A stretch of 22,162 nucleotides of DNA from the IMG/VR virus record IMGVR_UViG_2711768033_000004, one strand, 5' to 3'. The notes below the pieces were generated by a model. It worked only from the letters and a program-made list of their open reading frames with translations. It was not told the origin of the DNA and searched no databases. The translations under genes were made by a program, and so were the position numbers. Numbering within the stretch: position 1 is the first letter of the stretch; every line of letters begins with the position of its first letter. This document shows, piece by piece, positions 2,947-21,004 of this stretch. The stretch comes from a virus. Lineage: Duplodnaviria; Heunggongvirae; Uroviricota; Caudoviricetes.

Positions 2947-3450
2947 CCTTGCATGAATTACGTTGTATTTGCATTATGCCAGAACTGGTGAATTATTAAA
3001 CATTTCGCGAGCTGTGCCCCGCTGTTACACAGAACGTTGTTAGCAATGTCCGCAGTTCGCTCAAAGCTACCTTCCAGTTTAACTGGGTATTGGTTGCATT
3101 TTTGTTAGAGATATCCAAGTAAAATGCGAATGGGTAGCCAAGTCAATGCAAATTCCCAAATGGACGACTAAACGCGTTTGAATGCCTGTGTATGTTGTTG
3201 TAGTAACATCCTTTCAACCTAACCGTGCAGGCCTGACAACGTCCGTAACAAGAAGTAGAAATATTGCTCAAAAGGCAAGATAGGCGGGAGCTAAAAGGTA
3301 ACACGTGCTGTTAGCATACCCTTGCATTGAGCCACAAACAATCTCACTGGACTTGCCACAATTTTGCCACACCTACAACGCGCAAAATTGCACATTAGTG
3401 TTAAACAAAGCAAAACACTGCAATAGTAACTTGATGATTTTACGAGAAAA

Positions 3451-3470
3451 GATGGTGCCGATAATAGGAG
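3451..3470. repeat. att-site direct repeat (gatggtgccgataataggag); 18 nt are the complement of the tRNA-Thr 3' end
   Basis: 20/20 identity with 16112-16131. It includes the complement of ...CTCCTATTATCGGCACCA, the acceptor 3' strand plus CCA. Confidence 0.6.
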
Positions 3471-3571
3471 CAAAACATGCACATAACAAACTGAAAAACA
3501 AGAAAATAATAATTTATTTAAAATGATATGCCCCCATACATGCCCCACAATTTAGTTCCATTTACAGCTCT

Positions 3572-3681
3572 GGAAGCATGGGAAGCATGGGAAGCATGGG
3601 AAGCATGGGAAGCATGGGAAGCATGGGAAGCATGGGAAGCATGGGAAGCATGGGAAGCATGGGAAGCATGGGAAGCATGGG
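3572..3681. repeat. perfect tandem repeat, 9-bp unit GGAAGCATG x 12 (plus 2 nt)
   Basis: Counted directly in the sequence: twelve identical consecutive units with no degenerate copies. No stop codon in any frame on either strand. Confidence 0.95.
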
Positions 3682-3951
3682 CGTAGGTGTGGCCAGTTTC
3701 TCAACATCAGGTGTGTAAGCACCACAAGCTGTTCTGGTTAAGCTATAAACAGCTAGCAACTACTCTCAACTGAACCTGAAAGCTCCTTCTCCTGCTTAAC
3801 AGGATCGGATCTTAAGCAAATTTATTAACTTAAGTTTAAGCAATTAAGCCGATTTCAGATCCAGCGAAATCGTATTACTGCCAACGCAAAAACACATCAA
3901 CAATAATAACGTAAGTATTTTGAAACTGACCACAGTTATATTTCTATCAGA

Positions 3952-5970
3952 TTAATAACTTTCTTTCAATTCTTTTTTCTCAATCATCTTTACAAGATCT
4001 AACTCATCCCACTTGACAAACCAATAAGTTTTGAGCATAGATTGCAGATCGCTCTCAATTTCCAAATGGCTTCTATTCACATTTTTCTCATATTTTTTGA
4101 GATATTTTCTGTACAAAAATCGTCTTGTCTCAATTGAAACAAATGGGCAAGACATAACATCCAAGAATAAATGTGCCTTTTCCGATGATTGTAATAAATC
4201 CATATCAGGATATAGCAAATCTTTAATTCTAACCTCAACAATATGTTTAAGTTCTTGATAAGGTTTTCTATTTCTAAAATAGAATAATAATGAGATTATT
4301 GTAAAGTAATCCAATTTCTTTTTATGTATAATACCATTAAAGAAAGAAGTGCTTACAAGATAATTACCCCCAAAAAAAGTAGCAGCTAATATCAAATTAA
4401 CTTTCTCTATGGAAATAAACCCATCAATAAAAAGACCATTGTCATTTTCACCAAAATTGATATTTTCAGCAGTATCTATTAATGTTGTCATAAAAATACT
4501 GCTATAATCACTTGAAAGCATTTTCAAATAATCATTAACGATAACCATTGTTTTTGATAATTTATATGAAGATGACACAGTTGGGTTAACACTGAAGAAA
4601 AACAACATTATATCAGTTACTAAAAATATAATATCTTTAATATTCTTACGTATTTCAACATCACCTTTAATCTTTTCCACCGGAAAGAAATCAATAATTA
4701 ATATTAATCTTTTTGATAATGAAGATATCAGATACGAGGAAATATCCGTGTAAGAAACCTTGTTATCAACACATATAGACTTGATATTATTTATCATATT
4801 CACTTTTAAATCATGCTTGCTTCTAATCTTATTTAGAAAAATGTCACCATCAATCCTTTTATATAATTTACCTTCAAGATTCCGCACTAGTTCGTTAACT
4901 TTAATGATCAATCCTGTCTTGCTAGTGCAGAATGGCCTAGAATATTTTTTAAGTTTATTGATATTTAACTGAAGATTAAAATCATTTAGCTTCACGTTAA
5001 TGGTTTTAGTGATAAGTTCAGCATTTGCTTCATTGTTGCAAAACACTATAAAATCATCCACATACCTTAATATCACATAGTCCTCGTGATTAACCCACCC
5101 GTATTCATCAAAAAGATTTGATTCAATACTACAATCGATACGCTGGAATATTAACTCAGCAAAGACCCGACTAAATTCTGAGCCTATAGGTATACCATTA
5201 GTTTCATTATTATTACTACGTTGCATCAACGTATCTAGTTCCTGACCAAATTGATTGCTATATTTCACATGTTTTCTGATGTAAGGTTTATTTTTTAAAG
5301 CCCATGAAATAGAATGAGTATATATACTATCAAAACAATGTGATACATCTAACATCCACATTATTGAGAATCTTTTCTCAAGATCAAAAAACATTTTACT
5401 TTGAAATAACTTATATATCCTATTAAATCCGCCATAAGAAAAATAAGATGATGAATACTTCCTCATTAATTCATCATTTGTTGTTTCAATATCCTCTCCT
5501 TTATATTTCTCTGAGGCATTATTTTCATATAAGAAGAATGAGTTTGCGACCTTTCGAGGATATCTTATAGAGTAATTACTTTTTGACGCATTTAATGTTA
5601 TAACAGTTGAGTAATTTTTATAAAACTCACAATAATTAAGTTGCGATCTGGGATGAATTAAAGAAAGATATCTTAAACTAAAAGCATCCTTGACAATGCA
5701 ATAGCCAAACGGAAAGCTTTGTTTCTTCTTTTCTTTTTCTCGTTCTTCTATTTTTATAGACAAATCAAAAGCAGGATTAATAATTTTCTTTACGAATGAA
5801 GAAAGGGGAGAGAAATACAAAATCTCCTTATAATGATTTTCAAACTCGGTCAGGTTCAAATACAATCCATCATTTGAAAAGATGATGGGACAGTCACCTG
5901 GTTGCGTATCACATAGTAAAGCCCTGAGGTAATCCTTCTTATCAAGTTTTACATTTTTCTTTATAGCCAT
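3952..5970 (-). CDS. reverse transcriptase with a long C-terminal extension (672 aa); second gene of the RT pair, UG/Abi-type, DRT3-like
   Basis: RT motif A WMLDVSHCFDSI, motif B GIPIGSEFSRVFAELIF, motif C LRYVDDFIVFC. About 350 aa of helical-looking sequence follow motif C. The start overlaps the upstream RT gene by 10 nt. Confidence 0.85.
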   Translation of the reverse strand: MAIKKNVKLDKKDYLRALLCDTQPGDCPIIFSNDGLYLNLTEFENHYKEILYFSPLSSFVKKIINPAFDLSIKIEEREKEKKKQSFPFGYCIVKDAFSLRYLSLIHPRSQLNYCEFYKNYSTVITLNASKSNYSIRYPRKVANSFFLYENNASEKYKGEDIETTNDELMRKYSSSYFSYGGFNRIYKLFQSKMFFDLEKRFSIMWMLDVSHCFDSIYTHSISWALKNKPYIRKHVKYSNQFGQELDTLMQRSNNNETNGIPIGSEFSRVFAELIFQRIDCSIESNLFDEYGWVNHEDYVILRYVDDFIVFCNNEANAELITKTINVKLNDFNLQLNINKLKKYSRPFCTSKTGLIIKVNELVRNLEGKLYKRIDGDIFLNKIRSKHDLKVNMINNIKSICVDNKVSYTDISSYLISSLSKRLILIIDFFPVEKIKGDVEIRKNIKDIIFLVTDIMLFFFSVNPTVSSSYKLSKTMVIVNDYLKMLSSDYSSIFMTTLIDTAENINFGENDNGLFIDGFISIEKVNLILAATFFGGNYLVSTSFFNGIIHKKKLDYFTIISLLFYFRNRKPYQELKHIVEVRIKDLLYPDMDLLQSSEKAHLFLDVMSCPFVSIETRRFLYRKYLKKYEKNVNRSHLEIESDLQSMLKTYWFVKWDELDLVKMIEKKELKESY

Positions 5971-7238
5971 ATTTTTGTGATCTCAGTGTAACGTTTGAAA
6001 TTGTACTTCCTATAAACTCTATCAACAAAACCTTTTCTAAAACTATTGCGCAATAACTCCTTTCTTTGGTTTACAGTGAAGGAATGTTTCGCAATACTAT
6101 GCAAACGTCCGTTGTTCGATTTAACACAATATAATAAAAAATCATCTAATTGCTTTAAGGATATAGAATTTACATCCAATCTTGCATTACTATAATAAAT
6201 TCCAGTACTAACCTTACCTTTCTCTAATGAACTTAATGATCTAATCTTCCTATTTAAATCTCTATTGCTTGTTAAAAAAGAAATTCTATCTAATAACAAT
6301 TTAAAATCACCAGTTCTATGGTAGGAGTAGAAAGCTCTTGCTATTCTAGTTTTAATTTTTTTTATGCGTCCACGAGATAAATCTACAGTTACTTTTCTAT
6401 ATACACTTAAAGTAGCACCTTTGTTACTTAGAGGAGAATCTATTACAGAAAAAGAGTAACCTAAAAAATCAAATTTATGGAGTAATTTATCTTTACCTGC
6501 CGTGCCTTTGCTTCTTTTGTCGATAAGTGGGGACACCTTCAACTTATTTGTATTTAAACTTAATCCCTTGGGTAACAAACTTTGTATTTGTTTCATTAAA
6601 GTCGATGGGCATTCATTTCCACTTGAAATGATCACCATATCATCTACAAAGCGAGAGTAATAAAACACTTCTGAATGCCGATGAATACTACTATCAAATG
6701 CTGCCAAATATAGCTCAGATAACATAGGACTAATCTCCAGTCCTCTTGGCAAACCTTTTGATGAATGGATTCTTTCACAAGCTTTAAGATACCATTCTAT
6801 CAAATTTTTAGTATGTCTGGATAAACGCCGTTCATCTTGCAAATATTGAAAGAGCTGAGGCAAATCGATAGATTCAAAAAAAGATTTTATATCTAAGCGA
6901 TACACTCGGAATTGTGCACCTTCTTTGAGATAAATTTTAAGCTCATCAATTATTTTATTTCTTTGTTTGGGTAGAAGTGACTCCAAACATTTTAAGTTTG
7001 CATTACAATGTCTAAGTATTAGTTTTTCTTTTAAACAAGATGCGTTGTAAACACAACGTCCTTTGATATTTATTTTCTTTACAGTTACTCCAGAACGAAA
7101 ATTTTCGCTGGCAATTAAAACAGCATCACTGATTAATGATTCTAATTTATCCACATTGTTTTTATTAAAATAAAAACTCTTCTCACTTTCACTCAAGTTA
7201 CGCTTAAGTGCTGATGAAGTAAATGGCTGCCGGTTCAT
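5961..7238 (-). CDS. reverse transcriptase (about 425 aa); first gene of the RT pair
   Basis: Motif A YRLDIKSFFESI, motif B GLPRGLEISPMLSELYL, motif C YSRFVDDMVIIS, LGYSF motif. The ORF track extends to 7322 with a non-ATG start, but ATG at 7238 is preceded by GAGGGGGG, so I prefer that start. Confidence 0.85.
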   Translation of the reverse strand: MNRQPFTSSALKRNLSESEKSFYFNKNNVDKLESLISDAVLIASENFRSGVTVKKINIKGRCVYNASCLKEKLILRHCNANLKCLESLLPKQRNKIIDELKIYLKEGAQFRVYRLDIKSFFESIDLPQLFQYLQDERRLSRHTKNLIEWYLKACERIHSSKGLPRGLEISPMLSELYLAAFDSSIHRHSEVFYYSRFVDDMVIISSGNECPSTLMKQIQSLLPKGLSLNTNKLKVSPLIDKRSKGTAGKDKLLHKFDFLGYSFSVIDSPLSNKGATLSVYRKVTVDLSRGRIKKIKTRIARAFYSYHRTGDFKLLLDRISFLTSNRDLNRKIRSLSSLEKGKVSTGIYYSNARLDVNSISLKQLDDFLLYCVKSNNGRLHSIAKHSFTVNQRKELLRNSFRKGFVDRVYRKYNFKRYTEITKIWL

Positions 7239-7637
7239 AACCCCCCTCACAGTACTATCCTTTATGCTTTTATAACTCTTTACATCGTTGCGCGCAATCG
7301 CATCCTCGCTACACTTGACCACTTAATGTAATAGTTTCAGTCACCTGCATGAAATTGTGTAGGCCACGCTGACAAGTTGGCGGCTCGCTGGTCCCCACCG
7401 CATAATATGGGCATCATCCCTAACAATACTGGCGGTTTTAGCGATATGGGAAGATCCAGACTCTTATTTGTTCACATTTAATTGATATCTCTGCAGGTGC
7501 GAAGAAAAGATGATCAACATCGAACCATACGATTTAGGATACCAAAAAGTAGCGAATCTCCCCCAGCAACACTTACATCTATTGAAACTGACTGAGTTTC
7601 GCGAATTGCGCCAGAATTGACCATTTAGCCCTACCAC

Positions 7638-7856: not shown

Positions 7857-8129
7857 TCAGACAGGGATTTGTTGGCGGCTGGAAAGCTTGGATGCAGAGC
7901 CATAGCGATTCAGTGTCTGCCCTTTTTTGTCTGTAGCCTCCTCTACTGTCTGCGTATTCTCTTCTTTCTGCGGGCGGGTGATAATGGTATGCACTGATTC
8001 AAGCGCCGTAAAAGTGCTTGAACATTCCAGATTCTGGCACTGGTAGTACGTTTTCTTTACAGAGGGGGCTTCGTACACACTGGCTCGACAATGTGCAATG
8101 GCTGAACAGAAAGGACATTTCAATGCCAT
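7857..8129 (-). CDS. Ogr/Delta-family zinc-finger late transcription activator (90 aa)
   Basis: CPFC...YYQCQNLECSSTF matches the Ogr/Delta Cys4 zinc-finger pattern. GGAGGG lies 8 nt upstream. The start overlaps the upstream gene's stop (TGATG). Confidence 0.8.
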   Translation of the reverse strand: MALKCPFCSAIAHCRASVYEAPSVKKTYYQCQNLECSSTFTALESVHTIITRPQKEENTQTVEEATDKKGQTLNRYGSASKLSSRQQIPV

Positions 8130-8890
8130 CAGATACCCTCCGCAGCTCGGTTACGTTTTTGTAGTTCCTCACGTTCCTGCCGGATCTTCATTTTATGAAG
8201 GGCTGCCGGAGAAGGAATTTTGCGGAAATCAGCAAGAGCTGCATAATCCGGGGCAACTCCCGCCAGTTTAAACACCGGGTCCTGTTCAGGCATCGCATCG
8301 TTAGCCAGAGCCGGTCTGGTGATATGTTTATGAATAAAGTCTTTCAGCACTGTGTCCGGGTCATTAACTGAATTCACCACACCCACAACAGCACTGGCTT
8401 CCCGGCCCATTGTTGATTTAAGCAGGCTCAGCGTCTGAATAAGCGCTTTTCCATGCGACTGCATGAAGTCTTCCCAGATTTGCTTTGCGCGAATTTCCAC
8501 AAGGGTGTTATGTGCGCTGATATACTGCCCGGCTAATTTCCCGGCTTCCTGCGGTAATAATGCATTTTCGCTTTCCTGAGCAGTCAGCAGCTCATCAAAA
8601 TCCTCAAGCGTTTCACGCCCCAGCGCAATTTCCGTACGCAGTTTTTTCATTTCCTTTGAGACTACGCCCTGACTTTCACGAAACAGCGTGCGCCACTCCT
8701 CATTCAGCGCGTTAGTCGTGGCTTCCATTTCAGCGCGGCGCTGGCGGATTGTCGCAATATTATCCGCTGCCGCTTTCTGCTGACGACGTGCTTCAAGCCA
8801 TGCGTTTCTGGCTGTGTTCATGGTTTCCAGTGCCCGCTGCGTTACAGCCGGAAAAGAGGAAAGATTGTTATTCACTGCGGTGTTGTTCAT
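8129..8890 (-). CDS. putative Sid-like capsid size-determination / scaffold protein (253 aa)
   Basis: Long ORF translationally coupled to the Delta-like gene, sitting in the position of P4 sid and of similar size. The product call is positional inference only. Confidence 0.4.
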   Translation of the reverse strand: MNNTAVNNNLSSFPAVTQRALETMNTARNAWLEARRQQKAAADNIATIRQRRAEMEATTNALNEEWRTLFRESQGVVSKEMKKLRTEIALGRETLEDFDELLTAQESENALLPQEAGKLAGQYISAHNTLVEIRAKQIWEDFMQSHGKALIQTLSLLKSTMGREASAVVGVVNSVNDPDTVLKDFIHKHITRPALANDAMPEQDPVFKLAGVAPDYAALADFRKIPSPAALHKMKIRQEREELQKRNRAAEGI

Positions 8891-9068: not shown

Positions 9069-9256
9069 GGTGGAACAGGTGAAACATGTGTTACTGCTTT
9101 GTTTTGTAAAGCATTTATATGCACTGCACCGGTGGAACATCGCGGGTAACAAGGTGGAACAGCGGATTGGCTGGCGTTACATCTGTTCCACCTCACTATT
9201 TCAGAAGGTGGAACAGGTTCAGCCCTGTAAAATACGGTTGTTCCACCTGTTTCACC
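9069..9256. repeat. iteron cluster: about 8 copies of GGTG(G/A)AACA in both orientations (candidate replication origin, crr-like)
   Basis: Copies at 9069, 9078, 9131, 9153 and 9207 on the + strand, and inverted at 9184, 9239 and 9248, immediately downstream of the primase gene. P4 ori/crr carry comparable TGTTCACC-type iterons bound by the alpha protein. Confidence 0.65.
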
Positions 9257-9290
9257 TGTTACCCTTAATAAATAAGACTCACGCAAAGCC

Positions 9291-11963
9291 TTAACCCGGC
9301 ACCTTGCTGTTGAAGACATAGAGCCTGCGGGGATTCATCTCTGGCGGGCGAATGGTTGTCTGGAGTTTGCCATCAGTGGAGGGGAGCAGGTATCCACGAT
9401 CTGCGCACAGACGCGCCACCTTGCGCGGGTCAAATCCCCTGCAGATTTCTTTCCAGCCGGACGGCATGACATAGAACGTAGTGACAGCTTCCGTGCCCTG
9501 CGCGGTACTGCCTTTCTCCACCCTGCGCCAGCCCACCATATTGCCGGGGCGGTTGCGCTCGTCATACCAGTCTGCAAAGCGGCTGTACTGATTCGCGGTA
9601 AAGAAACTGCGAACCTGCTCCAGTGCGGCAATATCTTCCTGATTGGCGGTGTGCCCGCGATCTTTCAGCCATGCGTTCAGGCAGACGCGGGTTGCCCGCA
9701 GTGCTTCACCCTCAGGCCAGCCGGTGATACCCAGACGGGTTGCCAGTTCACCCGCCATCGCCACCAGTGCAAAGCGATTCACAGCCCGGCCCACCTGATT
9801 GCCTGCATCTTTCGGAGTCAGGGCGGCAGCATATTCCTTCATCAGCGATTTTGCCTGTGCCGTTAGTCCATTAAGATCAGCGGTCAGTACTTTCAGCCAC
9901 TCCCGGAACGGCGAACCGTAGTAGCAGGACGTGGCCCATTCAAGATGCTCTGCCAGAGCCTTGCCGCTGTCGAAGCCGTGCAGTTCCTCAAAAACGCCAA
10001 ATTTCCCGGAATCGCTGGGGATCTGGATCATCCTGACTTCCATCCCGGCAAAAGTACGCTCACCGGCCTTTGCCGCATGTTCGGTCAGAGACAACTCGCC
10101 AGTTGAAAAGAACAACAGGCGCCACTGCTTACGGGTACGCAGCTCACCGTCCGTACCGGCACGGCCCTTGCCCTGACCGTTTGCCAGCATGTAGGCGATA
10201 TTGCCTGCCTCGCGTCCGTCAACTTCCCGGATCTCATCAAGCATCATGGCGGCATCGTTGCGGCGGCTGGCGCATCCCTCCAGCGCGTTGCCGGTGGCCC
10301 GCCATGTCTGCCAGTAGTCAGGCCCGCCGCAGACGGAGGTTGCCGCTTTCATGGTGGTGGTCTTACCGTCTGTCGATTCCCCTTTGAGGTGGTAGCCGCC
10401 GCCGTCCATACCAACCAGCCGTAACAGTGGTGCAGCAAAGGCCAGGCTGACAGCAAATGCCACGCGGGAGTTGCCGGCACAGTAGCGGGATACGTTCTCC
10501 CGCCATTCCTCTGTTGTGCCCGACACGCGGAAATCACGCCCCTGCACGGAAGTGGTCTGGAGAATGACACCCTCTGCACCTTCACCGCTGACCTCATCCT
10601 GCAGGACGTAAACCTGACCATGCCAGCCAGTACGGCTGACGCAGGTCACGCGGCGTTCCGGTTTACACAGTGAGATATATTCCATCAGGCGTGCGCGTGC
10701 CTCGCCGGTGGTGCTGATATAAGACAGCCCGTTAACCAGCAGTACCCGGCGCAGTTCCTCACCACTGCCGCTCAGCATTTCCATCGGCATCGCCCAGCGG
10801 CGACGCTCACCCCACGTATCTTCCCATTCCAGCAGTCGTCCGAAGTTACCGCCATCGGCATCGCAGGTGATTGCCGTCACGCGCAGCGGGCTGCATATTT
10901 TGACGTTCTGGATCTCCGTCTCACCGTTGCGCTGTACCTGCTTTTCATACCAGAGATATTCCTGGGTAAGACGGAACCCGTGCGGCAGTTGCGTGCGGCC
11001 TTCCCCGCACAGTACCAGACCGTTGCGAAAGGCTTCACGGGCACGGGTAATACCGTGCTCCCGATGAAAGTCATTCCAGTCAGCCTTAATCTCTCCTGGT
11101 GGCAGCGTCATCCAGCCGCCAACAGCTTTTGCCGCCCGTTCAGCAAAGGCTCTGCCGGGATTCTCACCCCCGTCCTGAAAATCGTTATCACCGGCGATGA
11201 TAATTTTTACCTCAGGCCAGCGTGCCCGCAGCGACTGCGCCACATTGGGCAGGTTGCCCGCAGATATGGCAGCCACTACGCATCCGGCAGTGAGCTGGCT
11301 TACCGTCAGCGCCGTAGCGTAACCTTCGGTAATCACCACCTGTACCGGTGGTTCAGACGGTAACGGGATGAGCGACACAAACGCGCCTTTCATCGTGCTG
11401 CCGGGCAGTATGCTTTTTTCACCCGTCGGGGCGATAAGCTGTGCACCGGTTACGGCTCCGGTGTTGGTCGTGAGTGGTAACAGCAGGGAACCGGCAGGGA
11501 AATCCTTACCGCTGATATGCTGCACGCTTCCGGTCAGATAGGCCGGGTATCCGGCGAACCCTTTTTCTGTCAGATAGGCGCTTTCTCCCGTGTGGCTCTC
11601 TTTCATCAGCGCCGCCACGGTAAGACCCATGTCGCGTTTAGGGGCTTTTTGTCTGGCAGGCTTAACAGGCAGTTCCTGCACATCCGGCACATTAAGCACC
11701 TGCGCCACCTCCTGCGCAGCCTTTCTGACGCTGTAACCGGTTACGAGCTTAACCAGATCCAGACCATCACCATTGCCACACTGGCTGCAGATCCACGTCC
11801 CGCGCCCGTCAAGGTCATCAAGGCGAAAACGATCCTTGCCCCCACATTTCGGGCAGGGACCGTGCCTGCCGTTTTCAGGTACATCAATACGCAGCATCTG
11901 CAGAATAACGGGCCATTTCCCCCGTGCGGCGGCTGAAATCTGCGTAACCGTCTGTATTGTCAT
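9291..11963 (-). CDS. P4 alpha-like primase-helicase (890 aa): Zn-ribbon, TOPRIM, SF3-type P-loop
   Basis: N-terminal CPKCGG...CSQCGNGDG zinc ribbon; TOPRIM-like IIIAGDNDFQDGGE; Walker A GESTDGKTT. High G+C typical of the P4 backbone. Start overlaps the upstream gene (ATGA). Confidence 0.9.
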   Translation of the reverse strand: MTIQTVTQISAAARGKWPVILQMLRIDVPENGRHGPCPKCGGKDRFRLDDLDGRGTWICSQCGNGDGLDLVKLVTGYSVRKAAQEVAQVLNVPDVQELPVKPARQKAPKRDMGLTVAALMKESHTGESAYLTEKGFAGYPAYLTGSVQHISGKDFPAGSLLLPLTTNTGAVTGAQLIAPTGEKSILPGSTMKGAFVSLIPLPSEPPVQVVITEGYATALTVSQLTAGCVVAAISAGNLPNVAQSLRARWPEVKIIIAGDNDFQDGGENPGRAFAERAAKAVGGWMTLPPGEIKADWNDFHREHGITRAREAFRNGLVLCGEGRTQLPHGFRLTQEYLWYEKQVQRNGETEIQNVKICSPLRVTAITCDADGGNFGRLLEWEDTWGERRRWAMPMEMLSGSGEELRRVLLVNGLSYISTTGEARARLMEYISLCKPERRVTCVSRTGWHGQVYVLQDEVSGEGAEGVILQTTSVQGRDFRVSGTTEEWRENVSRYCAGNSRVAFAVSLAFAAPLLRLVGMDGGGYHLKGESTDGKTTTMKAATSVCGGPDYWQTWRATGNALEGCASRRNDAAMMLDEIREVDGREAGNIAYMLANGQGKGRAGTDGELRTRKQWRLLFFSTGELSLTEHAAKAGERTFAGMEVRMIQIPSDSGKFGVFEELHGFDSGKALAEHLEWATSCYYGSPFREWLKVLTADLNGLTAQAKSLMKEYAAALTPKDAGNQVGRAVNRFALVAMAGELATRLGITGWPEGEALRATRVCLNAWLKDRGHTANQEDIAALEQVRSFFTANQYSRFADWYDERNRPGNMVGWRRVEKGSTAQGTEAVTTFYVMPSGWKEICRGFDPRKVARLCADRGYLLPSTDGKLQTTIRPPEMNPRRLYVFNSKVPG

Positions 11964-13275: not shown

Positions 13276-13319
13276 GGTAATTACCATGTAGTCATCATAT
13301 TCTAGGGTAATTACCATGT
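13276..13319. promoter_or_regulatory. two copies of GGTAATTACCATGT (perfect 10-bp palindrome GGTAATTACC plus ATGT), 30 bp apart; candidate operator pair
   Basis: Copies at 13276-13289 and 13306-13319. They sit in the divergent region between the primase operon and the RHH gene, and the second copy overlaps the RHH start codon. Confidence 0.5.
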
Positions 13320-13937: not shown

Positions 13938-14762
13938 TTAGTTAAACTTAATGTTTTTCATGCAACTACGTAGCAAACTAACAACAGTATCATAGCTCAA
14001 AGGCGGTTCTCCGGTCTTAGGCCAGAACTCACTGGCATGTTGAAAAAGATAATCAGCTATCGCTGCTGGACTCTCTCTTCTTAGCCTCATATCACGATGA
14101 TAGAGCGAAATAATAGCCATGAGTATTTCAGCTCGAGGAACAGCATGTTTTTGTTTTTGCGCCTCAGATTGTGATTTATATTTATTGGCGTTTTTTATCC
14201 GCTTTTGTTCGCATAAGACTATATCAATGAATTTTTGAATCTGTACCTTTGTAATCCACAAAACCTCAAAAAGATAATAATTTTCTTTTTCATCATAATT
14301 TACATAAAGAATTACCTTACAATTTATATTAGGCGTACCCGCCAGTAGAAAATGAATAGGCCAGGAATCCGGTTGCCCCTCATGCTTAACTAACAGATCT
14401 TTATATTCATAATCAACAGCCCATAAACCGGATATGAAACATCGAATAAAACCATTTTTATCAATTAAATTATCTTCATCAGGGATTCTTATAGAACTTA
14501 AGTCTGACAACATAATATTGCCATTTCTATCTCGTGGTAAATATTTCAGATTAGATAAGAACTCATCCATTTGACCATCAATCTTCAAACCACATGAAAC
14601 ATCATACTCATCATCATGGAATTCCATGCATAGCTCTACATCTCGTTCTCTGGCAAACCAGAGTATATCCTTTTCACTACAACCAATTTTTTCTGAAGCT
14701 TCCTCCAACTGGTAGTAATCTCTGAGCAGAGAATCAGTATTATTAATTTTTAAAATATTCAT
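13938..14762 (-). CDS. hypothetical AT-rich protein (274 aa) with a possible N-terminal HTH, translationally coupled to the integrase
   Basis: Its ATG overlaps the integrase stop (ATGA). The N-terminal segment YQLEEASEKIGCSEKDILWFARE looks HTH-like. The rest has no recognisable motif. Confidence 0.7.
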   Translation of the reverse strand: MNILKINNTDSLLRDYYQLEEASEKIGCSEKDILWFARERDVELCMEFHDDEYDVSCGLKIDGQMDEFLSNLKYLPRDRNGNIMLSDLSSIRIPDEDNLIDKNGFIRCFISGLWAVDYEYKDLLVKHEGQPDSWPIHFLLAGTPNINCKVILYVNYDEKENYYLFEVLWITKVQIQKFIDIVLCEQKRIKNANKYKSQSEAQKQKHAVPRAEILMAIISLYHRDMRLRRESPAAIADYLFQHASEFWPKTGEPPLSYDTVVSLLRSCMKNIKFN

Positions 14763-15949
14763 TTATGAGTACCAATTAGCTCAGATAAATAATTAGCATA
14801 CCATTGCATCATTTCTCTTCTCCCTTCGAGATATTGGGCATGGTTATAAATTCCACGAATAGAGTTTTTGTCCGAATGAGCAAGCTGGGTTTCAATCCAA
14901 GCGCTGTTAAATCCTTTCTCATGTAGGATTGTACTCATCGTATGCCTGAAACCATGCCCCGTAACACGCCCTGCATATCCAATACGTTTAAACACCTGAT
15001 TAATGCTTGCTTCACTCATAAATTTGCTAGGATCGTTGCGTCCAGGGAACATCAGCGGGTAGTTCCCAGTTAGTTCTTTCAAACTTTTGAGATGGGATAA
15101 TGCTTGTTTTGACAACGGGACAATATGGCTCCTACGCATTTTCATACGTTCTTTTGGGATCTCCCACACCGCATTATCAAAATCCACCTCTCGCCACTCA
15201 CCTGCTCGTAGTTCTCCAGTTCGTAGACCTGTCAGGATAAGTAAATGCGCCCCCAACAATACAATTGGACTTCCTGAATAAGAATTAAGGGCATTAAAGA
15301 ACTCCGGTAGTTCGTTGGCTTTGAGGAATGGATAGTGGACTGCTTCATGTCCTTGCATCGCACTGGCAAGATCCGGTGCCGGATTGTAGATTGCCCTACC
15401 CGTTACGATGGCATAGCGAAAAACTTCACCGCATCGCTGACGGACTTTCTTCGCTTTCTCCATAGCGCCTCGAGTTTCTATCAACCTCAGAACTTCAAGC
15501 AGTTCAAGGGGCTGAATATCAGCTATAGGTCTGTGCCCAATATGCGGGAAAATGTCTTTCTCGAATGCCTCAATGATGTCGGAAGCATAGCCCTCAGACC
15601 ATTTGGGTGATTTCATTTTGTGCCACTCTAACGCCACTTCTCTGAATGGGTTAAGTGTCTCAATCGCTGCATTTAAAGCCTGCTTTTTGGCTTTTTTGAC
15701 TTCGCCGGGATCTTCACCTGCTGCGAGTAGTTTCTTCGCGTCTTCTCGTTTTTGTCTGGCATCAGCAAGTGTGACTGTTGGATAAACACCAAAGGACAAT
15801 CGTTTCTCTTTACCAGCAAAACGGTATTTCATACGCCAGTAACGCGAGCCATTAGGTTCGACCTGAAGGTATAGGCCACCTCCATCAAACAGCTTGTAGC
15901 TCTTCTCTTTTCCTTTCGCAGCTTCAACCTTGCGGGCATTCAGCATCAT
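14759..15949 (-). CDS. P4-type tyrosine integrase
   Basis: Begins MMLNARKVEAAKGKEKSYKLFDGGGLYLQV, typical of a P4-family integrase N-terminus, with the catalytic region ...HGFRHT... It lies about 165 bp from the tRNA 3' fragment. The track's longer ORF starts at a TTG (16018); I prefer ATG 15949. Confidence 0.9.
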   Translation of the reverse strand: MMLNARKVEAAKGKEKSYKLFDGGGLYLQVEPNGSRYWRMKYRFAGKEKRLSFGVYPTVTLADARQKREDAKKLLAAGEDPGEVKKAKKQALNAAIETLNPFREVALEWHKMKSPKWSEGYASDIIEAFEKDIFPHIGHRPIADIQPLELLEVLRLIETRGAMEKAKKVRQRCGEVFRYAIVTGRAIYNPAPDLASAMQGHEAVHYPFLKANELPEFFNALNSYSGSPIVLLGAHLLILTGLRTGELRAGEWREVDFDNAVWEIPKERMKMRRSHIVPLSKQALSHLKSLKELTGNYPLMFPGRNDPSKFMSEASINQVFKRIGYAGRVTGHGFRHTMSTILHEKGFNSAWIETQLAHSDKNSIRGIYNHAQYLEGRREMMQWYANYLSELIGTHK

Positions 15950-16113
15950 TGGGGGCACATTTCCTAGACCGAACAGAACATGCCCCTGATTGTGCCCCCA
16001 ACCGCGTGTTGATTTCAAGAGACAAGGGTTGACCTCAAACGTATGAAAACAACGTAATATATATGTTTTTAAATGATTTTGTTGATGTGGGTTGACTTGG
16101 GAAAACTAGGTGA

Positions 16114-16159
16114 TGGTGCCGATAATAGGAGTCGAACCTACGACCTTCGCATTACGAAT
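16114..16159 (-). repeat. partial tRNA-Thr(CGU) (thrW-like) 3' portion, 46 nt from the anticodon loop to CCA; att remnant, not a functional tRNA
   Basis: The reverse complement reads ATTCGTAATGCGAAGGTCGTAGGTTCGACTCCTATTATCGGCACCA: anticodon CGT, T-loop TTCGACT, acceptor 3' strand and CCA. The sequence 5' of this does not match a tRNA, so no cloverleaf can form. Confidence 0.8.
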
Positions 16160-16411
16160 TATAAGAATCCGCTTCTAATTCAAAGCATTACCCCATCAAC
16201 ACTGCGCTCACACGTCCCACCACATCAAAACATGTAAAGCCTTGCAAGCCATTGTGAGGCCTTATGTGTCTCAGTTTTGTCCCACCTTGTATTACGACTT
16301 GCATAGCCAATGAAGATCAACGTGACGACAAACGGCGCAGCAGTCTTCTTTTCCTTCATACTTTCCCTTCCCCTTCCCCACCATGCATACTTTTCTGCCA
16401 TAACTAAAGTG

Positions 16412-16549: not shown

Positions 16550-19500
16550 TTATCTCGTAAAATTAGTTTTATGACTTCCTGTTAGCTGACTGTCTTCATA
16601 ATAAAATGCCCCACTAAACTCCTGTCGACCATAATGATGACTTGATGTGAGTGAGCCCCCTATAACACCTTTTTCACCTAATAATGTCCAAACGATTTCA
16701 AAACCATTGTCCCTTAACATTGTTAAAAATGGTTCTTTTTTAACAAGTAGATGCGGCTTTGAAGCATATACAGCTTCAGCTGCAAAGCAAACCATAGTTC
16801 CATTTTCATCATTGAAGCTACCCTCTACTTCCCCATTTTTTAAGCCCATCTTTTCAAAGATTAAGTTGCTAGGCTTCAAAAAATTCAAAGCTTCTATTTT
16901 TGATTTGTCGAACTCCTCTCCCCACAAATAATTAATCGAAGTGACACTAACATCAGCTATCTTAGCTCCAGACTCCCGGTCTGTTACCGAAGTCCAGTCA
17001 GAACCACCATAATAATCTGATTTAAAAGACTTAAATGCTTCGGACCAATAGTACTCCCTATTAAATAATTGGTATCTATCAGTACATTCCGGCATCCACC
17101 TGCCCATAAAGTCTTGAGCTATTGCCCAACATCTAAAATTTTCAAATTCTTGAACTTTAACGATATAACTTCTGATCTGATACCAAACCTCTTTTCGTGG
17201 GTGCCCCCAATCATCGTTTCCAATAATTTTTGGTTCTTTCCATGATGGATAACTTTCTAATACTATCCATTCATCACCATTATCATCTTTAACTTCAATC
17301 AAAGCATATGGATTAGTTATAGTAGTAGAGCTTTTAACCCAGTCTTCATTAGAGCAAGTCCAATCAAACACTTCATCATTAAGCCACCACATTTCTTTAT
17401 TGCTTATTTTTTTCGTCCCAGTTTCTTTAAGTAAGATAGTGGGATCTATATCTCTTACGTAAGGCTCCCATGGCCCTTGGTATGGGTTTTCCTTTCGGTC
17501 GTCACCATAACCTTCAAAACGAATAAAATTATCGGCTAGCCTTGCCATGTATTCATAATAAGCAATCCATTGGTATTTTTTACCAATCCGTTCTTGGAAT
17601 TCCTCTCTACGTCCACGTCCAGTTCCTATTTGTTGATCAAAATCACCATGCTTCTCCGGATCCCAACCAAGTTCCAGAACACGATTGAATATAAATTGTT
17701 GAGCTAGTCGAAGATCAAAGTGTTTATCAGTTTCCAGCAGATTATTATTATGATCTAGGTATGGCTCTATTTCATTTTCAAACTCACTTAACAGATCGTA
17801 TGACAATGAATTCTTAAATAGCTTCTTGCTCGCCTTTATTTCTTCCTGTGCTTTTCTACCGACCACGCTACCAAATTTAATTCCTTCACATTTATCATCA
17901 TAAATGAAAGGATCTGTAGCATCATACAATTTTTTTTGTTGGTCAGTTAGTTTACATTTGAAAGTTTTAAAAATTTTCTTACGGTCAATAGGAGTTTCAT
18001 TAAACTTGCAACCAGACCAATCAGAATGATTGTAATTTGTTCCAATGGTATATCGTGAAAAGTCACCACCTCCCATAATCGAGCTCCAGAGTGCCCGATA
18101 AGGTTCTTTATTATAAAGAGACTCTAGTTCCTCTTTTGGAGGAATCTCGTCAGGCCAAATGCTGTTGTAGGGTGGCCTAGTCTTGGATAATTCAATACTT
18201 TCAAGTTCCAGTCCAAGATGATTAGCAAATTCAATAATCTCTCTCGCATAATCTCTAAGTAATATATTTGGATACACAGACTCAGAACAAAATACCTTTT
18301 GGTAAACAGTTTCGGCTAAATATTTTAGTTCTTTAATATTATCAGTTCGCAATGTACAACCCAATGCAACTGCAAATATTCTTTCCCAAACGTAAGGATC
18401 ATTTACACCATAAAACTTATCAATTATTTTTCTCAATACAGGAATTCTTGGCTCGAGTAAACTCACTAAAGCCTTGGTTGAGCAATCTCGAAGTTCTCGG
18501 TTACTAGAAGTTAAAAACCAGCATAAACTAGTTGCAACTAGCTCGATTGACTCATCCGAAACGAAGCTTTTATCTGTTCTGCCCCATGCCCAATCGATTA
18601 GATGCCTAAATGCTGAGTCTTCACTATATTTATATTTAAGTTTTGTAGTCCAACACGAATCTCGATTTCCCAAAGAGTAATCTTTTAGCCAATCATGCAA
18701 GAAATTAGCATTAAAGGGATGGTCAACTAAACCTGAAATAGAGATCACTGCCTCGAGAAAATGATCAAAACTACCTTTAAATTTAAAAACATGTTCATTG
18801 ATGAAAGGTCTGATTTTTTCGAAATCAATAGCCTTAATATCTCGCCATATCAAGCTATCAATAAAGGCTTCTAGTAATTTATGATTATTGCTGAACTCCG
18901 GCAGAAATTCATAAAGCTCTTTTCCATACTTTTCTGGCAATTGAATAGAAAGCGCCTCAACTATTCCCGAGTTTGTATAAAAATCACATTCATCATGAAA
19001 ATATTTTTTCAGACGACCATCTGACTTAAATTCATTTTCGATATTTTCAACATCATTTAATAAAAAATTAACGGTTAAATGATCATCAAACCTTTCAAAA
19101 GCCACATGAACTACTTCCTCAGTAGCATTATCATTATTTCTCACTATGCCTTTAGTCAATAATCCTTCGTCAATCAAGGCGCTGAGGAAATTTTTATCTG
19201 TAACATAATCATTAACTACAGATTGAACCACTGAGTGAGCATCTCTAAGTGAAATACTATTACTACCAATCTCTAATTTGAATTTTATGATTTCGTTGAG
19301 AGCATCTTTTACAAGAGGAAAACTGGGATCGAAATCATATTTTTTTGGCGATGCCAATGATTTATTCACCCCTTCCACTAAAAAGTTAAAAATATTTGAA
19401 ATCCCATTAAACCCAACAGGTACTTTGGTTAAACCATTTTTCTTAATGCCTTCACACAATAACTTAAGAAATAGAGGGTTTTTAAACTCTGGATTAAGAT

Positions 19501-21004
19501 TAGGTGATGAAGGCCTCTCTATATTGTAATAATCATAAAATAGACTAACCGCTTCTAACTCAACATTCTGAAATCCAATATGTTCATGAATTTCAAAATT
19601 ATTTCGCTCAACATTCTCATGTGAAATTGTTACATTTCTATATGTTGTTCTGACTGACATTATCAGACCAAGCCATTCAAAGCATCTGATTTCATCGACA
19701 AAACTGTTAATATTGTCATTCCAGAATTTATTTCCATTACCTTCATTAATAGCATCAATGAAAACCAAGACTCTTTTTCCTGTTTTTTTGCCATATAAAT
19801 TCAGTTTTTCCAGGAATTCACGAGAAGTGATTTTAAGCTGTAATCTCTTGAAGATCTGTGACCATGGAGATTCATCTGAAGTAAGTTGTTGCCCTAGTAT
19901 GAGTAGAGAAGGATATCCAGAAGCAATTCGATTTTTAATCACATCAGCCAGTAAATGAGACTTACCAATTCCAGCTTTTCCTTCGAGAAGTAAGAATGGG
20001 TTGTTAGCCAACTTTACTGTTGTTGAATTAATGAATGTACGTAATTCATTGCACGCATAGTCAAGTTCCCGAAGCATTCGCAGAGTAGATGAATACTTAT
20101 CACTGTAATGCTTGGTTTCACCTACTTGTTCTGACTTTTCTCGGAGTTCCCACAATATTGATTCCGCTCCGCCAATAGCTGTCTGGCAGCTGTCAACATA
20201 GTTATTAAATTTATTTATAGGAATTTGATCTAATTTAGAAAAATTAAGCTCTTGATATATATCCGCAATTTGATTTAAGGACTCGTCTATTACAGATAAT
20301 TCTGAGTAAATTACATCGCAACTATGTAACCTCTTTCTAGTCATCAGAAAATTATCTATATGTGAGTAAAATATTTTAGCAAAATCATCAGTTCTACCGA
20401 GACCATCAAATATCTCTGCTATTTCTAGCTTTACGTTGAGTTCGGGTGTGTATCGGCCTCCCAAGTCAGCTATTGCTTGACTATTTTTTTCATTTAACCA
20501 ACCATCACTCAAGTGAAAAGTTAGTTTGTCATCTATAGACCGCAAAATAAGTTTAACTTGAATAAGCTCTTCATTAATATCGAATATTTTTTCTTTATAC
20601 GTTTCTTCGATATGTAGCTTTTTTAACTTCGAACAATTATTGATTTTTAACGATAACATCTCATAAAAAAGGCTGAGTTGTTGTTGAGTTGGGGGGGTGA
20701 TGCTTGGATATTCTTTGAACTTGTCTAATAATATCCCTTTGTCAGGGAACTCTTTAAACAAGATGTGTTCATTCAACATCTCAAACAATGGTTCAGAATG
20801 ATAAAATGGAATTGCTCCACTTTCTACTGGATATGTTTCTTCAAACTCAATTGCCGTCTCTTCAATTAGTTGATATAATCTATCCACATATCTTTTTTGG
20901 GGGAATAATGCTTTCTTAATACAACCATATCCTTCTTGAGAGATGAATTGATCAATAAGTTTAGTTGCTACATAAGTTGCCACTGTAATTGATATAGGTT
21001 CCAT
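16550..21004 (-). CDS. large STAND / NACHT-like P-loop NTPase (1484 aa), candidate antiviral NLR-like protein
   Basis: Uninterrupted 4.4-kb ORF, markedly AT-rich. Walker A LLLEGKAGIGKSHLL (GxAGxGKS, NACHT-type) at about residue 340; Walker B-like RVLVFIDAINEG. It has an unassigned N-terminal domain of about 330 aa and a C-terminal region of about 1000 aa. Confidence 0.8.
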   Translation of the reverse strand: MEPISITVATYVATKLIDQFISQEGYGCIKKALFPQKRYVDRLYQLIEETAIEFEETYPVESGAIPFYHSEPLFEMLNEHILFKEFPDKGILLDKFKEYPSITPPTQQQLSLFYEMLSLKINNCSKLKKLHIEETYKEKIFDINEELIQVKLILRSIDDKLTFHLSDGWLNEKNSQAIADLGGRYTPELNVKLEIAEIFDGLGRTDDFAKIFYSHIDNFLMTRKRLHSCDVIYSELSVIDESLNQIADIYQELNFSKLDQIPINKFNNYVDSCQTAIGGAESILWELREKSEQVGETKHYSDKYSSTLRMLRELDYACNELRTFINSTTVKLANNPFLLLEGKAGIGKSHLLADVIKNRIASGYPSLLILGQQLTSDESPWSQIFKRLQLKITSREFLEKLNLYGKKTGKRVLVFIDAINEGNGNKFWNDNINSFVDEIRCFEWLGLIMSVRTTYRNVTISHENVERNNFEIHEHIGFQNVELEAVSLFYDYYNIERPSSPNLNPEFKNPLFLKLLCEGIKKNGLTKVPVGFNGISNIFNFLVEGVNKSLASPKKYDFDPSFPLVKDALNEIIKFKLEIGSNSISLRDAHSVVQSVVNDYVTDKNFLSALIDEGLLTKGIVRNNDNATEEVVHVAFERFDDHLTVNFLLNDVENIENEFKSDGRLKKYFHDECDFYTNSGIVEALSIQLPEKYGKELYEFLPEFSNNHKLLEAFIDSLIWRDIKAIDFEKIRPFINEHVFKFKGSFDHFLEAVISISGLVDHPFNANFLHDWLKDYSLGNRDSCWTTKLKYKYSEDSAFRHLIDWAWGRTDKSFVSDESIELVATSLCWFLTSSNRELRDCSTKALVSLLEPRIPVLRKIIDKFYGVNDPYVWERIFAVALGCTLRTDNIKELKYLAETVYQKVFCSESVYPNILLRDYAREIIEFANHLGLELESIELSKTRPPYNSIWPDEIPPKEELESLYNKEPYRALWSSIMGGGDFSRYTIGTNYNHSDWSGCKFNETPIDRKKIFKTFKCKLTDQQKKLYDATDPFIYDDKCEGIKFGSVVGRKAQEEIKASKKLFKNSLSYDLLSEFENEIEPYLDHNNNLLETDKHFDLRLAQQFIFNRVLELGWDPEKHGDFDQQIGTGRGRREEFQERIGKKYQWIAYYEYMARLADNFIRFEGYGDDRKENPYQGPWEPYVRDIDPTILLKETGTKKISNKEMWWLNDEVFDWTCSNEDWVKSSTTITNPYALIEVKDDNGDEWIVLESYPSWKEPKIIGNDDWGHPRKEVWYQIRSYIVKVQEFENFRCWAIAQDFMGRWMPECTDRYQLFNREYYWSEAFKSFKSDYYGGSDWTSVTDRESGAKIADVSVTSINYLWGEEFDKSKIEALNFLKPSNLIFEKMGLKNGEVEGSFNDENGTMVCFAAEAVYASKPHLLVKKEPFLTMLRDNGFEIVWTLLGEKGVIGGSLTSSHHYGRQEFSGAFYYEDSQLTGSHKTNFTR

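Follow-up and report, generated by a model that had tools for sequence, protein, structure and literature searches.

The presence of a perfect tandem repeat just downstream of an RT operon raises the question of whether the repeat belongs to the RT system, as part of its ncRNA or as a template, or whether it could simply be a VNTR, both of which had been proposed in a first-pass annotation of the sequence. The repeat lies in a stretch of 22,162 nucleotides (contig CXWR01000039.1, assembly GCA_001268585.1), hereafter the window, by which we mean the whole of the DNA that was analyzed. As described below, comparison of copy number among related loci shows that the array is a VNTR, and we consider it likely that this VNTR is young, lineage-specific and slippage-driven, and that it is situated in the non-conserved 3' trailer of a DRT3 ncRNA gene. 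The array lies outside the conserved RNA fold, is not an RT template, and is not a gene.

Analysis of positions 3572-3681 with Tandem Repeats Finder gave a period of 9, 12.2 copies, 100% matches, 0 indels, and a score of 220, and a repeat finder recovered the identical array with its copies in register (Table 1). Allowing at most one mismatch, the unit GGAAGCATG was found at 19 sites in the window versus 5.4 ± 2.3 in shuffled sequences; 12 of the 19 are exact and contiguous, and no further exact GGAAGCATG occurs in the window. Read on the RT strand, the units are (CCCATGCTT)x12 followed by CC, or equivalently (CCCAUGCUU)n, in which an AUG recurs at 9-nt intervals. The drt3b frame ends with a TAA at 3954-3952, leaving a gap of 270 nt (3682-3951) to the array, which in turn begins 101 nt inside the att repeat GATGGTGCCGATAATAGGAG (the 3451-3470 copy). 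These measurements bear out the initial description of a perfect 9-bp x 12 array approximately 270 bp past the second RT stop and 100 bp inside the att repeat. An assembly artefact was rejected, as independent chromosome-level E. coli assemblies, one of the three titled complete genome, hold the array with 8, 11, and 18 units. A CRISPR array, for which the repeat had already been judged too regular, was likewise rejected, as the 9-bp units are contiguous and lack spacers, versus CRISPR repeats of ~24-48 bp alternating with unique spacers of similar length.

Table 1. Positions of the array and of neighbouring features in the window.
Feature	Position	Strand	Basis or remark
attR core, copy of the tRNA-Thr 3' end	3451..3470 (partner 16112-16131)		20-bp perfect direct repeat GATGGTGCCGATAATAGGAG
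Two ATGCCCC motifs, 12 bp apart, between att core and array	3528..3546	+	kept in array-less relatives
48-codon ORF ending (EAW)12A	3540..3686	+	"hypothetical protein" in some genomes; repeat artefact
VNTR array	3572..3681		(GGAAGCATG)x12.2 on + strand
Linker ACCUACG, 7 nt, from closing helix to first repeat unit	3682..3688	-	
DRT3 ncRNA conserved core, ~245 nt	3689..3933	-	fold, covariation, homology, position downstream of drt3b
ncRNA closing helix, 12 bp	3933-3922 paired with 3700-3689	-	
ACACAC motif (putative template)	3711..3716	-	window sequence; 10-locus alignment
drt3b (UG8-type RT), 672 aa	3952..5970	-	PADLOC Drt3b E = 4e-200, full length; Pfam RVT_1
drt3a (UG3-type RT)	5961..7322	-	PADLOC Drt3a E = 1e-130; Pfam RVT_1
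Ogr/Delta gene	7857-8129		Pfam
Psu-like gene	8129-8890		Pfam
P4 alpha-type primase (Zn-ribbon + Toprim + DUF927)	9291-11963		Pfam
Tyrosine integrase	14759-16018		Pfam

The array can be read through in all six frames (GSM, EAW, and KHG on the + strand; PML, PCF, and HAS on the - strand), as had been pointed out together with the in-frame AUG every 9 nt and the Met-Leu-Pro frame (PML), but this follows trivially from a unit that lacks a stop codon in any frame. That the array encodes a small repeat protein, either (EAW)n on the + strand or (MLP)n on the RT strand, is suggested by these open frames and by annotation pipelines, which call an (EAW)n ORF of 42-79 aa in some genomes (including L001:3089-3289, L003:3089-3226, WP_332240278.1, and WP_432796428.1). 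However, the stop-to-stop open stretches over the array comprise 54-65 codons and are barely longer than the 36 repeat codons, inspection of the sequence revealed no Shine-Dalgarno upstream of the ATG at 3540, and on translation the frame extends for only ~15 codons in L039, a 94% relative. The ORF lies on the strand opposite the ncRNA trailer, and no homologue or family was found for it. As its length tracks copy number it is likely spurious; we are close to certain that the array does not encode a protein, and the original impression that it does not lie in a convincing gene was sound.

The two RT genes upstream of the array form an adjacent, overlapping pair of UG3-type drt3a and UG8-type drt3b, the arrangement that characterizes DRT3, and RefSeq annotation of the sister loci agrees with the Drt3a and Drt3b naming. 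The longest drt3a ORF encodes 453 aa, versus 425 aa in public gene calls, and the product is 32% identical to the characterised EcoDRT3a. In EcoDRT3, a 161-nt ncRNA is located downstream of drt3b and has an intrinsic terminator at its end; its 5'-ACACAC-3' templates synthesis of poly(dTdG) by Drt3a, and poly(dCdA) synthesis by Drt3b uses no RNA (Wang, Yoneyama et al. 2026, PMC13174585). The minimum free energy fold of the 270-nt gap between drt3b and the array has a z-score of -5.2 relative to shuffled sequences. We aligned this region from 10 loci, consisting of the window, E. coli relatives, and metagenome and viral contigs whose Drt3b proteins are 77-94% identical. The consensus fold contains 66 pairs, with 96.6% of cells paired, and 12 pairs show compensatory changes; none of 500 shuffles attained the observed values, and slid controls of the alignment were 35-42% paired. 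The helix that closes the fold was 100% paired in all 10 loci, with two compensatory pairs.

The window element thus resembles the published ncRNA in its location downstream of drt3b, in the invariant ACACAC, and in a closing helix through which the 5' end comes to lie beside the segment just 3' of the template (PMC13174585). The EcoDRT3 ncRNA also folds with an analogous closing helix, directly followed by its terminator; the window core differs in that it is longer (~245 versus 161 nt) and has no intrinsic terminator behind it, with the VNTR occupying that position. In the 10-locus alignment neither the ACACAC nor the columns beside it vary, and nearly all of ~80 DRT3 loci carry ACACAC 40-300 nt downstream of drt3b; by analogy with EcoDRT3, we take the motif in the window to be the putative DRT3 template (PMC13174585). 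GUUGAGA also occurs twice in the ncRNA, flanking the putative template stem-loop (in the 3770 and 3705 regions). An Rfam search of the window at gathering thresholds gave no match and thus no DRT3 ncRNA, and a 24-mer from the ncRNA had no match among one genome per species because the clade is too rare.

In BLAST searches, the homology shared with the 19 other E. coli DRT3 loci of the ncRNA clade covers 3686-3960 and ends at the array, and both conservation and covariation end at 3689-3686, while the first repeat unit begins at 3681. In the intervening linker, ACC is conserved and the remainder diverges among relatives. The ncRNA is therefore the 270-nt gap, with the array outside it. The first-pass annotation was correct in expecting an ncRNA next to the RT operon, but this RNA fills the gap that had been treated as empty rather than the array.

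That the array is nevertheless part of the functional ncRNA, or a template yielding cDNA with a 9-nt unit, would be compatible with its position near the ncRNA on the same strand, with which it is probably co-transcribed. The related RTs DRT10 and Drt3a are likewise linked to tandem-repeat DNA, which they make in a telomerase-like manner (PMC13174585; PMC12632851). The DRT10 and Drt3a repeats, however, arise by reiterative copying of a single short template and not from a repeated gene segment. They are enzymatic products, whereas the array is genomic, is unrelated to the template sequence, and varies by what would be replication slippage. The invariant ACACAC lies 30 nt upstream of the array, and the DRT3 products reported are limited to poly(dTdG) and poly(dCdA) (PMC13174585). 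Finally, the array is missing from all other DRT3 loci examined, is not conserved among homologous loci encoding 80-94% identical Drt3b, and lies outside the covarying structure. With the conserved ncRNA structure ending at 3689 and the ACACAC outside the array, the proposal that the repeat is an ncRNA segment or template was not upheld, and we regard it as highly improbable.

To compare copy number, we used 13 loci, window included, in which Drt3b, by annotation or by reading of the sequence, is the same protein as in the window; an exact look-up of the window Drt3b returned only its own contig, and the sister loci were obtained through the cluster representative P0001. Public assemblies with this Drt3b number several hundred (457 index blocks). 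Among these loci, whose flanks are nearly identical, the array spans 5 to 21 units: 5 in L029 and L030, 7 in L031, 8 in L032 (= L002) and L036, 9 in L038, 10 in L034, 11 in L035 (= L003), 12 in the window, 18 in L001, 20 in L033, and 21 in L037. Variant units, CCCGTGCTT, are present in three arrays, which consist of five plain, one variant, and one plain unit (L031), six, one, and one (L036), and five, two, and one (L032), patterns that show single-unit duplication of both plain and variant units. The earlier statement that there is no degenerate copy thus holds in the window but not in other strains, while the recent expansion and contraction that it was taken to suggest, and the variation in copy number that a comparison of related strains was expected to reveal, are both evident. 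Head-to-tail copies, copy numbers that differ among near-identical loci, and stepwise change by single units, all three of them seen here, are the hallmarks of a VNTR, which was the fallback among the initial proposals. A homology search for further alleles with the (EAW)n ORF gave two irrelevant matches, and exact look-up of (EAW)n alleles of 6-15 units had no match in the collection; the copy numbers therefore rest on the 13 loci. All alleles of this expanded lineage have at least five units and none of the 13 loci has collapsed to one or two, a floor that may be due to weak selection or simply to how few loci were sampled.

The array is missing from every other DRT3 locus examined, including relatives whose Drt3b is 91-94% identical. 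In the nearest of these, two imperfect units occupy the array position: CTCATGCTT CCCATGCTT in L039 (Drt3b 94%), TTCATTCTT CCTATGCCC in L040 (92%), and CTCATGCTT CCCATCCTT in L122 (91%). At a Drt3b identity of 80% (L004-L006) the position is filled by an unrelated 27 nt, although the ncRNA that precedes it and the ATGCCCC motifs and att core that follow can still be aligned. On these sequences, the series from proto-repeat to array reads as a classical minisatellite birth and expansion. The array was present in 3 of 5426 chromosome-level E. coli genomes, and the ncRNA clade in 22. A 27-mer of the repeat had 20 matches in the genome collection and 1 in the viral collection, all in unrelated taxa and contexts and hence uninformative, and a search of the phage collection in distant mode with 3451-3960 found no match.

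The array and the RT genes are part of a mobile element. DRT3 is cargo of a P4-like satellite inserted in a tRNA-Thr gene of E. coli and adjoins one of its att ends. The two direct repeats are 12.66 kb apart and bound an element of 12.7 kb, with the RT genes last in the element. It encodes an integrase, an alpha-type primase, Psu, and Ogr/Delta proteins which, with att repeats at a tRNA gene, mark it as a P4-like satellite. An E. coli genome with an empty site has an intact tRNA-Thr gene exactly at the att core, next to proA, which we take to be thrW. ARAGORN detected no tRNA in the window because the attL copy of thrW (16112-16160) is only the 3' half, cut in the anticodon loop and fused to unrelated sequence. 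A cos site and Sid were not identified in the satellite, and the P2/P4 cos 19-mer used as query, whose sequence may be wrong, had no match.

This position next to the attachment site led us to consider whether the array comprises protein-binding sites of the attP arm, for the integrase (arm-type) or an accessory factor, with copy number modulating integration or excision. RTGCCCC occurs 10 times in the window, versus 3.8 expected, and 5 of the 10 are within 160 bp of the two att cores, with the motif also found around the other att copy (15952-15998); we therefore regard the ATGCCCC/RTGCCCC motifs as candidate integrase arm-type sites, binding being predicted from sequence. A distance of 101 bp separates the array from the att core, the array lies 26 bp past the two conserved ATGCCCC motifs that belong to this clustering around both cores, the proto-repeat of L040 contains an inverted ATGCCC, and the junctions of the array read ATGCTTCCC. 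The expanded unit, however, no longer matches the ATGCCCC motif, no GGAAGCATG-like sites are found near the other att copy, and the array lies outside the candidate arm sites and core rather than between them. Moreover, in relatives that share the att core and whose attP arm, though diverged, can still be aligned, the array position is occupied by unrelated sequence. A binding array is thus very unlikely.

The likely explanation is a VNTR generated by slippage, which lies between the ncRNA closing helix and the attP arm of the thrW P4-like satellite. The array probably descends from the imperfect two-unit proto-repeat still visible in the nearest relatives, and slipped-strand mispairing at replication would since have added and removed units singly or a few at once. 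MutS-dependent mismatch repair does not act on loops as large as 9 nt, and perfect 9-bp arrays are unstable because such loops escape it. In its perfect, head-to-tail, intergenic 9-bp units and widely differing copy number the array is like the bacterial VNTRs and minisatellites used in E. coli MLVA, and its interspersed and duplicated variant units and apparent growth from a two-unit proto-repeat likewise fit replication slippage. Unlike E. coli MLVA loci, it is carried on a rare mobile thrW satellite (3/5426 genomes) and not in the core genome, and to our knowledge it is not among the published E. coli MLVA loci. As there is no terminator between the ncRNA and the array, the array is probably co-transcribed with drt3ab-ncRNA as its trailer, and this tail of the drt3a-drt3b-ncRNA transcript would then be trimmed off. 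Nothing in the sequences compared indicates that DRT3 needs the array, and its lack of conservation suggests that it has no function.

If the array is transcribed, it might contribute to the formation of the ncRNA 3' end. Under this hypothesis, (CCCAUGCUU)n would act as a rut site terminating the drt3ab-ncRNA transcript, with exonucleases then trimming the RNA to the closing helix; copy number would set the efficiency of termination, and hence ncRNA dosage or read-through into the host flank, and a Psu-like Rho antagonist would relieve termination upon induction of the satellite. The RT-strand sequence of the array consists of 45% C and 11% G across 108 nt, and the repeat RNA folds no better than shuffled sequences (z = +0.8), as would be expected of a Rho loading site; like rut sites, it would provide ~100 nt of C-rich, G-poor, unstructured RNA at the end of a transcription unit. 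A scan of 3300-4100 found no terminator-like site, and thus no intrinsic terminator. The array starts 7 nt past the closing helix, where EcoDRT3 has its intrinsic terminator, the satellite encodes a Psu-like protein (8129-8890), and a second C-rich, G-free array is found downstream of a distant DRT3 locus, L105. Unlike known rut sites, however, the array is a perfect tandem repeat, and its composition is not conserved: array-less close relatives have no excess of C over G across the 80 nt that follow the helix (C/G 0.17/0.23, 0.17/0.19, and 0.14/0.16), and the C-rich property is therefore neither ancestral nor conserved. The combination expected of a rut site (C-rich, G-poor, unstructured, ~80 nt or more) was found for the 12-unit allele only, and alleles of five units span 45 nt, below the typical rut length. 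In addition, a canonical intrinsic terminator follows the ncRNA in only 13 of 75 DRT3 loci (within 170 nt 3' of ACACAC; L028-L131) and is not recognisable in the other 62; its absence is therefore the norm, and no substitute is called for. For the same reason, we rejected replacement of the intrinsic terminator by the VNTR as a general argument. With the relatives offering no support, we consider it unlikely that a Rho-loading trailer tunes the ncRNA 3' end.

Two related candidates were also rejected. A terminator hairpin formed between the repeat and the G-rich complement of ATGCCCC (9 bp with G-U pairs, 27-nt loop) is possible on paper, but has no direct U-run and was missed by the scan. The array at L105:3715-3782 (Ga0163162_10005687) is an intergenic (TACCACC)x9.7 whose RT-strand sequence is 54% C and 0% G, located ~170 nt 3' of ACACAC and just before a convergent 264-aa gene, in a locus whose Drt3b is ~30% identical. 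Recurrent VNTRs downstream of DRT3 were rejected, since this is the one other clear array in ~75 loci, which is indistinguishable from background.

A broader version of this idea holds that the array is a contingency-type dial, in which 5-21 units would tune ncRNA dosage, and hence the balance of defence and autoimmunity, by Rho loading or 3'-end processing, with the Psu-like anti-Rho protein coupling this to helper-phage infection and the (TACCACC)n array of L105 as a second instance. Like contingency loci, the array is a presumably hypermutable repeat adjoining a system under fluctuating selection, here phage defence. In contingency loci, however, the repeat lies in a promoter or reading frame and switches expression, whereas the array is downstream of both the operon and the ncRNA, at 270 nt from the last gene and 7 nt from the ncRNA core, and a unit of 9 bp cannot shift the frame. 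A dial of this kind is decidedly improbable.

The array, likely an ordinary slippage-prone repeat, may serve as a fast-evolving typing marker for one thrW satellite lineage, and it is a warning that annotation pipelines turn such repeats into a spurious (EAW)n "hypothetical protein". As one further VNTR, it is less noteworthy than the divergent DRT3 that surrounds it: the more useful outcome of this analysis is that the seemingly empty 270 nt hold a divergent, longer DRT3 ncRNA with the ACACAC motif and a fold supported by covariation. If copy number does affect the 3' end or dosage of the ncRNA, the alleles described here would form a natural allelic series for DRT3 ncRNA maturation, which at loci that lack an intrinsic terminator is not addressed in published work.

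A number of further features were noted in and around the satellite. It is surrounded by a defence island (324-1166, 1567-2946, and 16550-21004), with a C-terminal fragment of HamB, the Hachiman helicase, and an FRG-domain PDC-S15 candidate on one side, and a full-length Avs2 gene (1484 aa) on the other. The same satellite and Drt3b are found beside differing host flanks (MalT-like, LysR, paoD, or FRG; L029 and L030 versus L031-L038 and the window), which makes the stretch downstream of thrW highly variable from strain to strain. Two mutually inverted 9-bp repeats, GGTGAAACA (x2.4) and TGTTCCACC (x2.4), lie immediately 3' of the alpha-primase gene at 9069-9090 and 9239-9260, and we presume them to resemble the P4 ori/crr iterons. 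Lastly, the early region of the satellite contains a perfect 14-bp direct repeat, GGTAATTACCATGT, at 13276-13289 and 13306-13319, whose two copies, spaced 30 bp, could be an operator pair.
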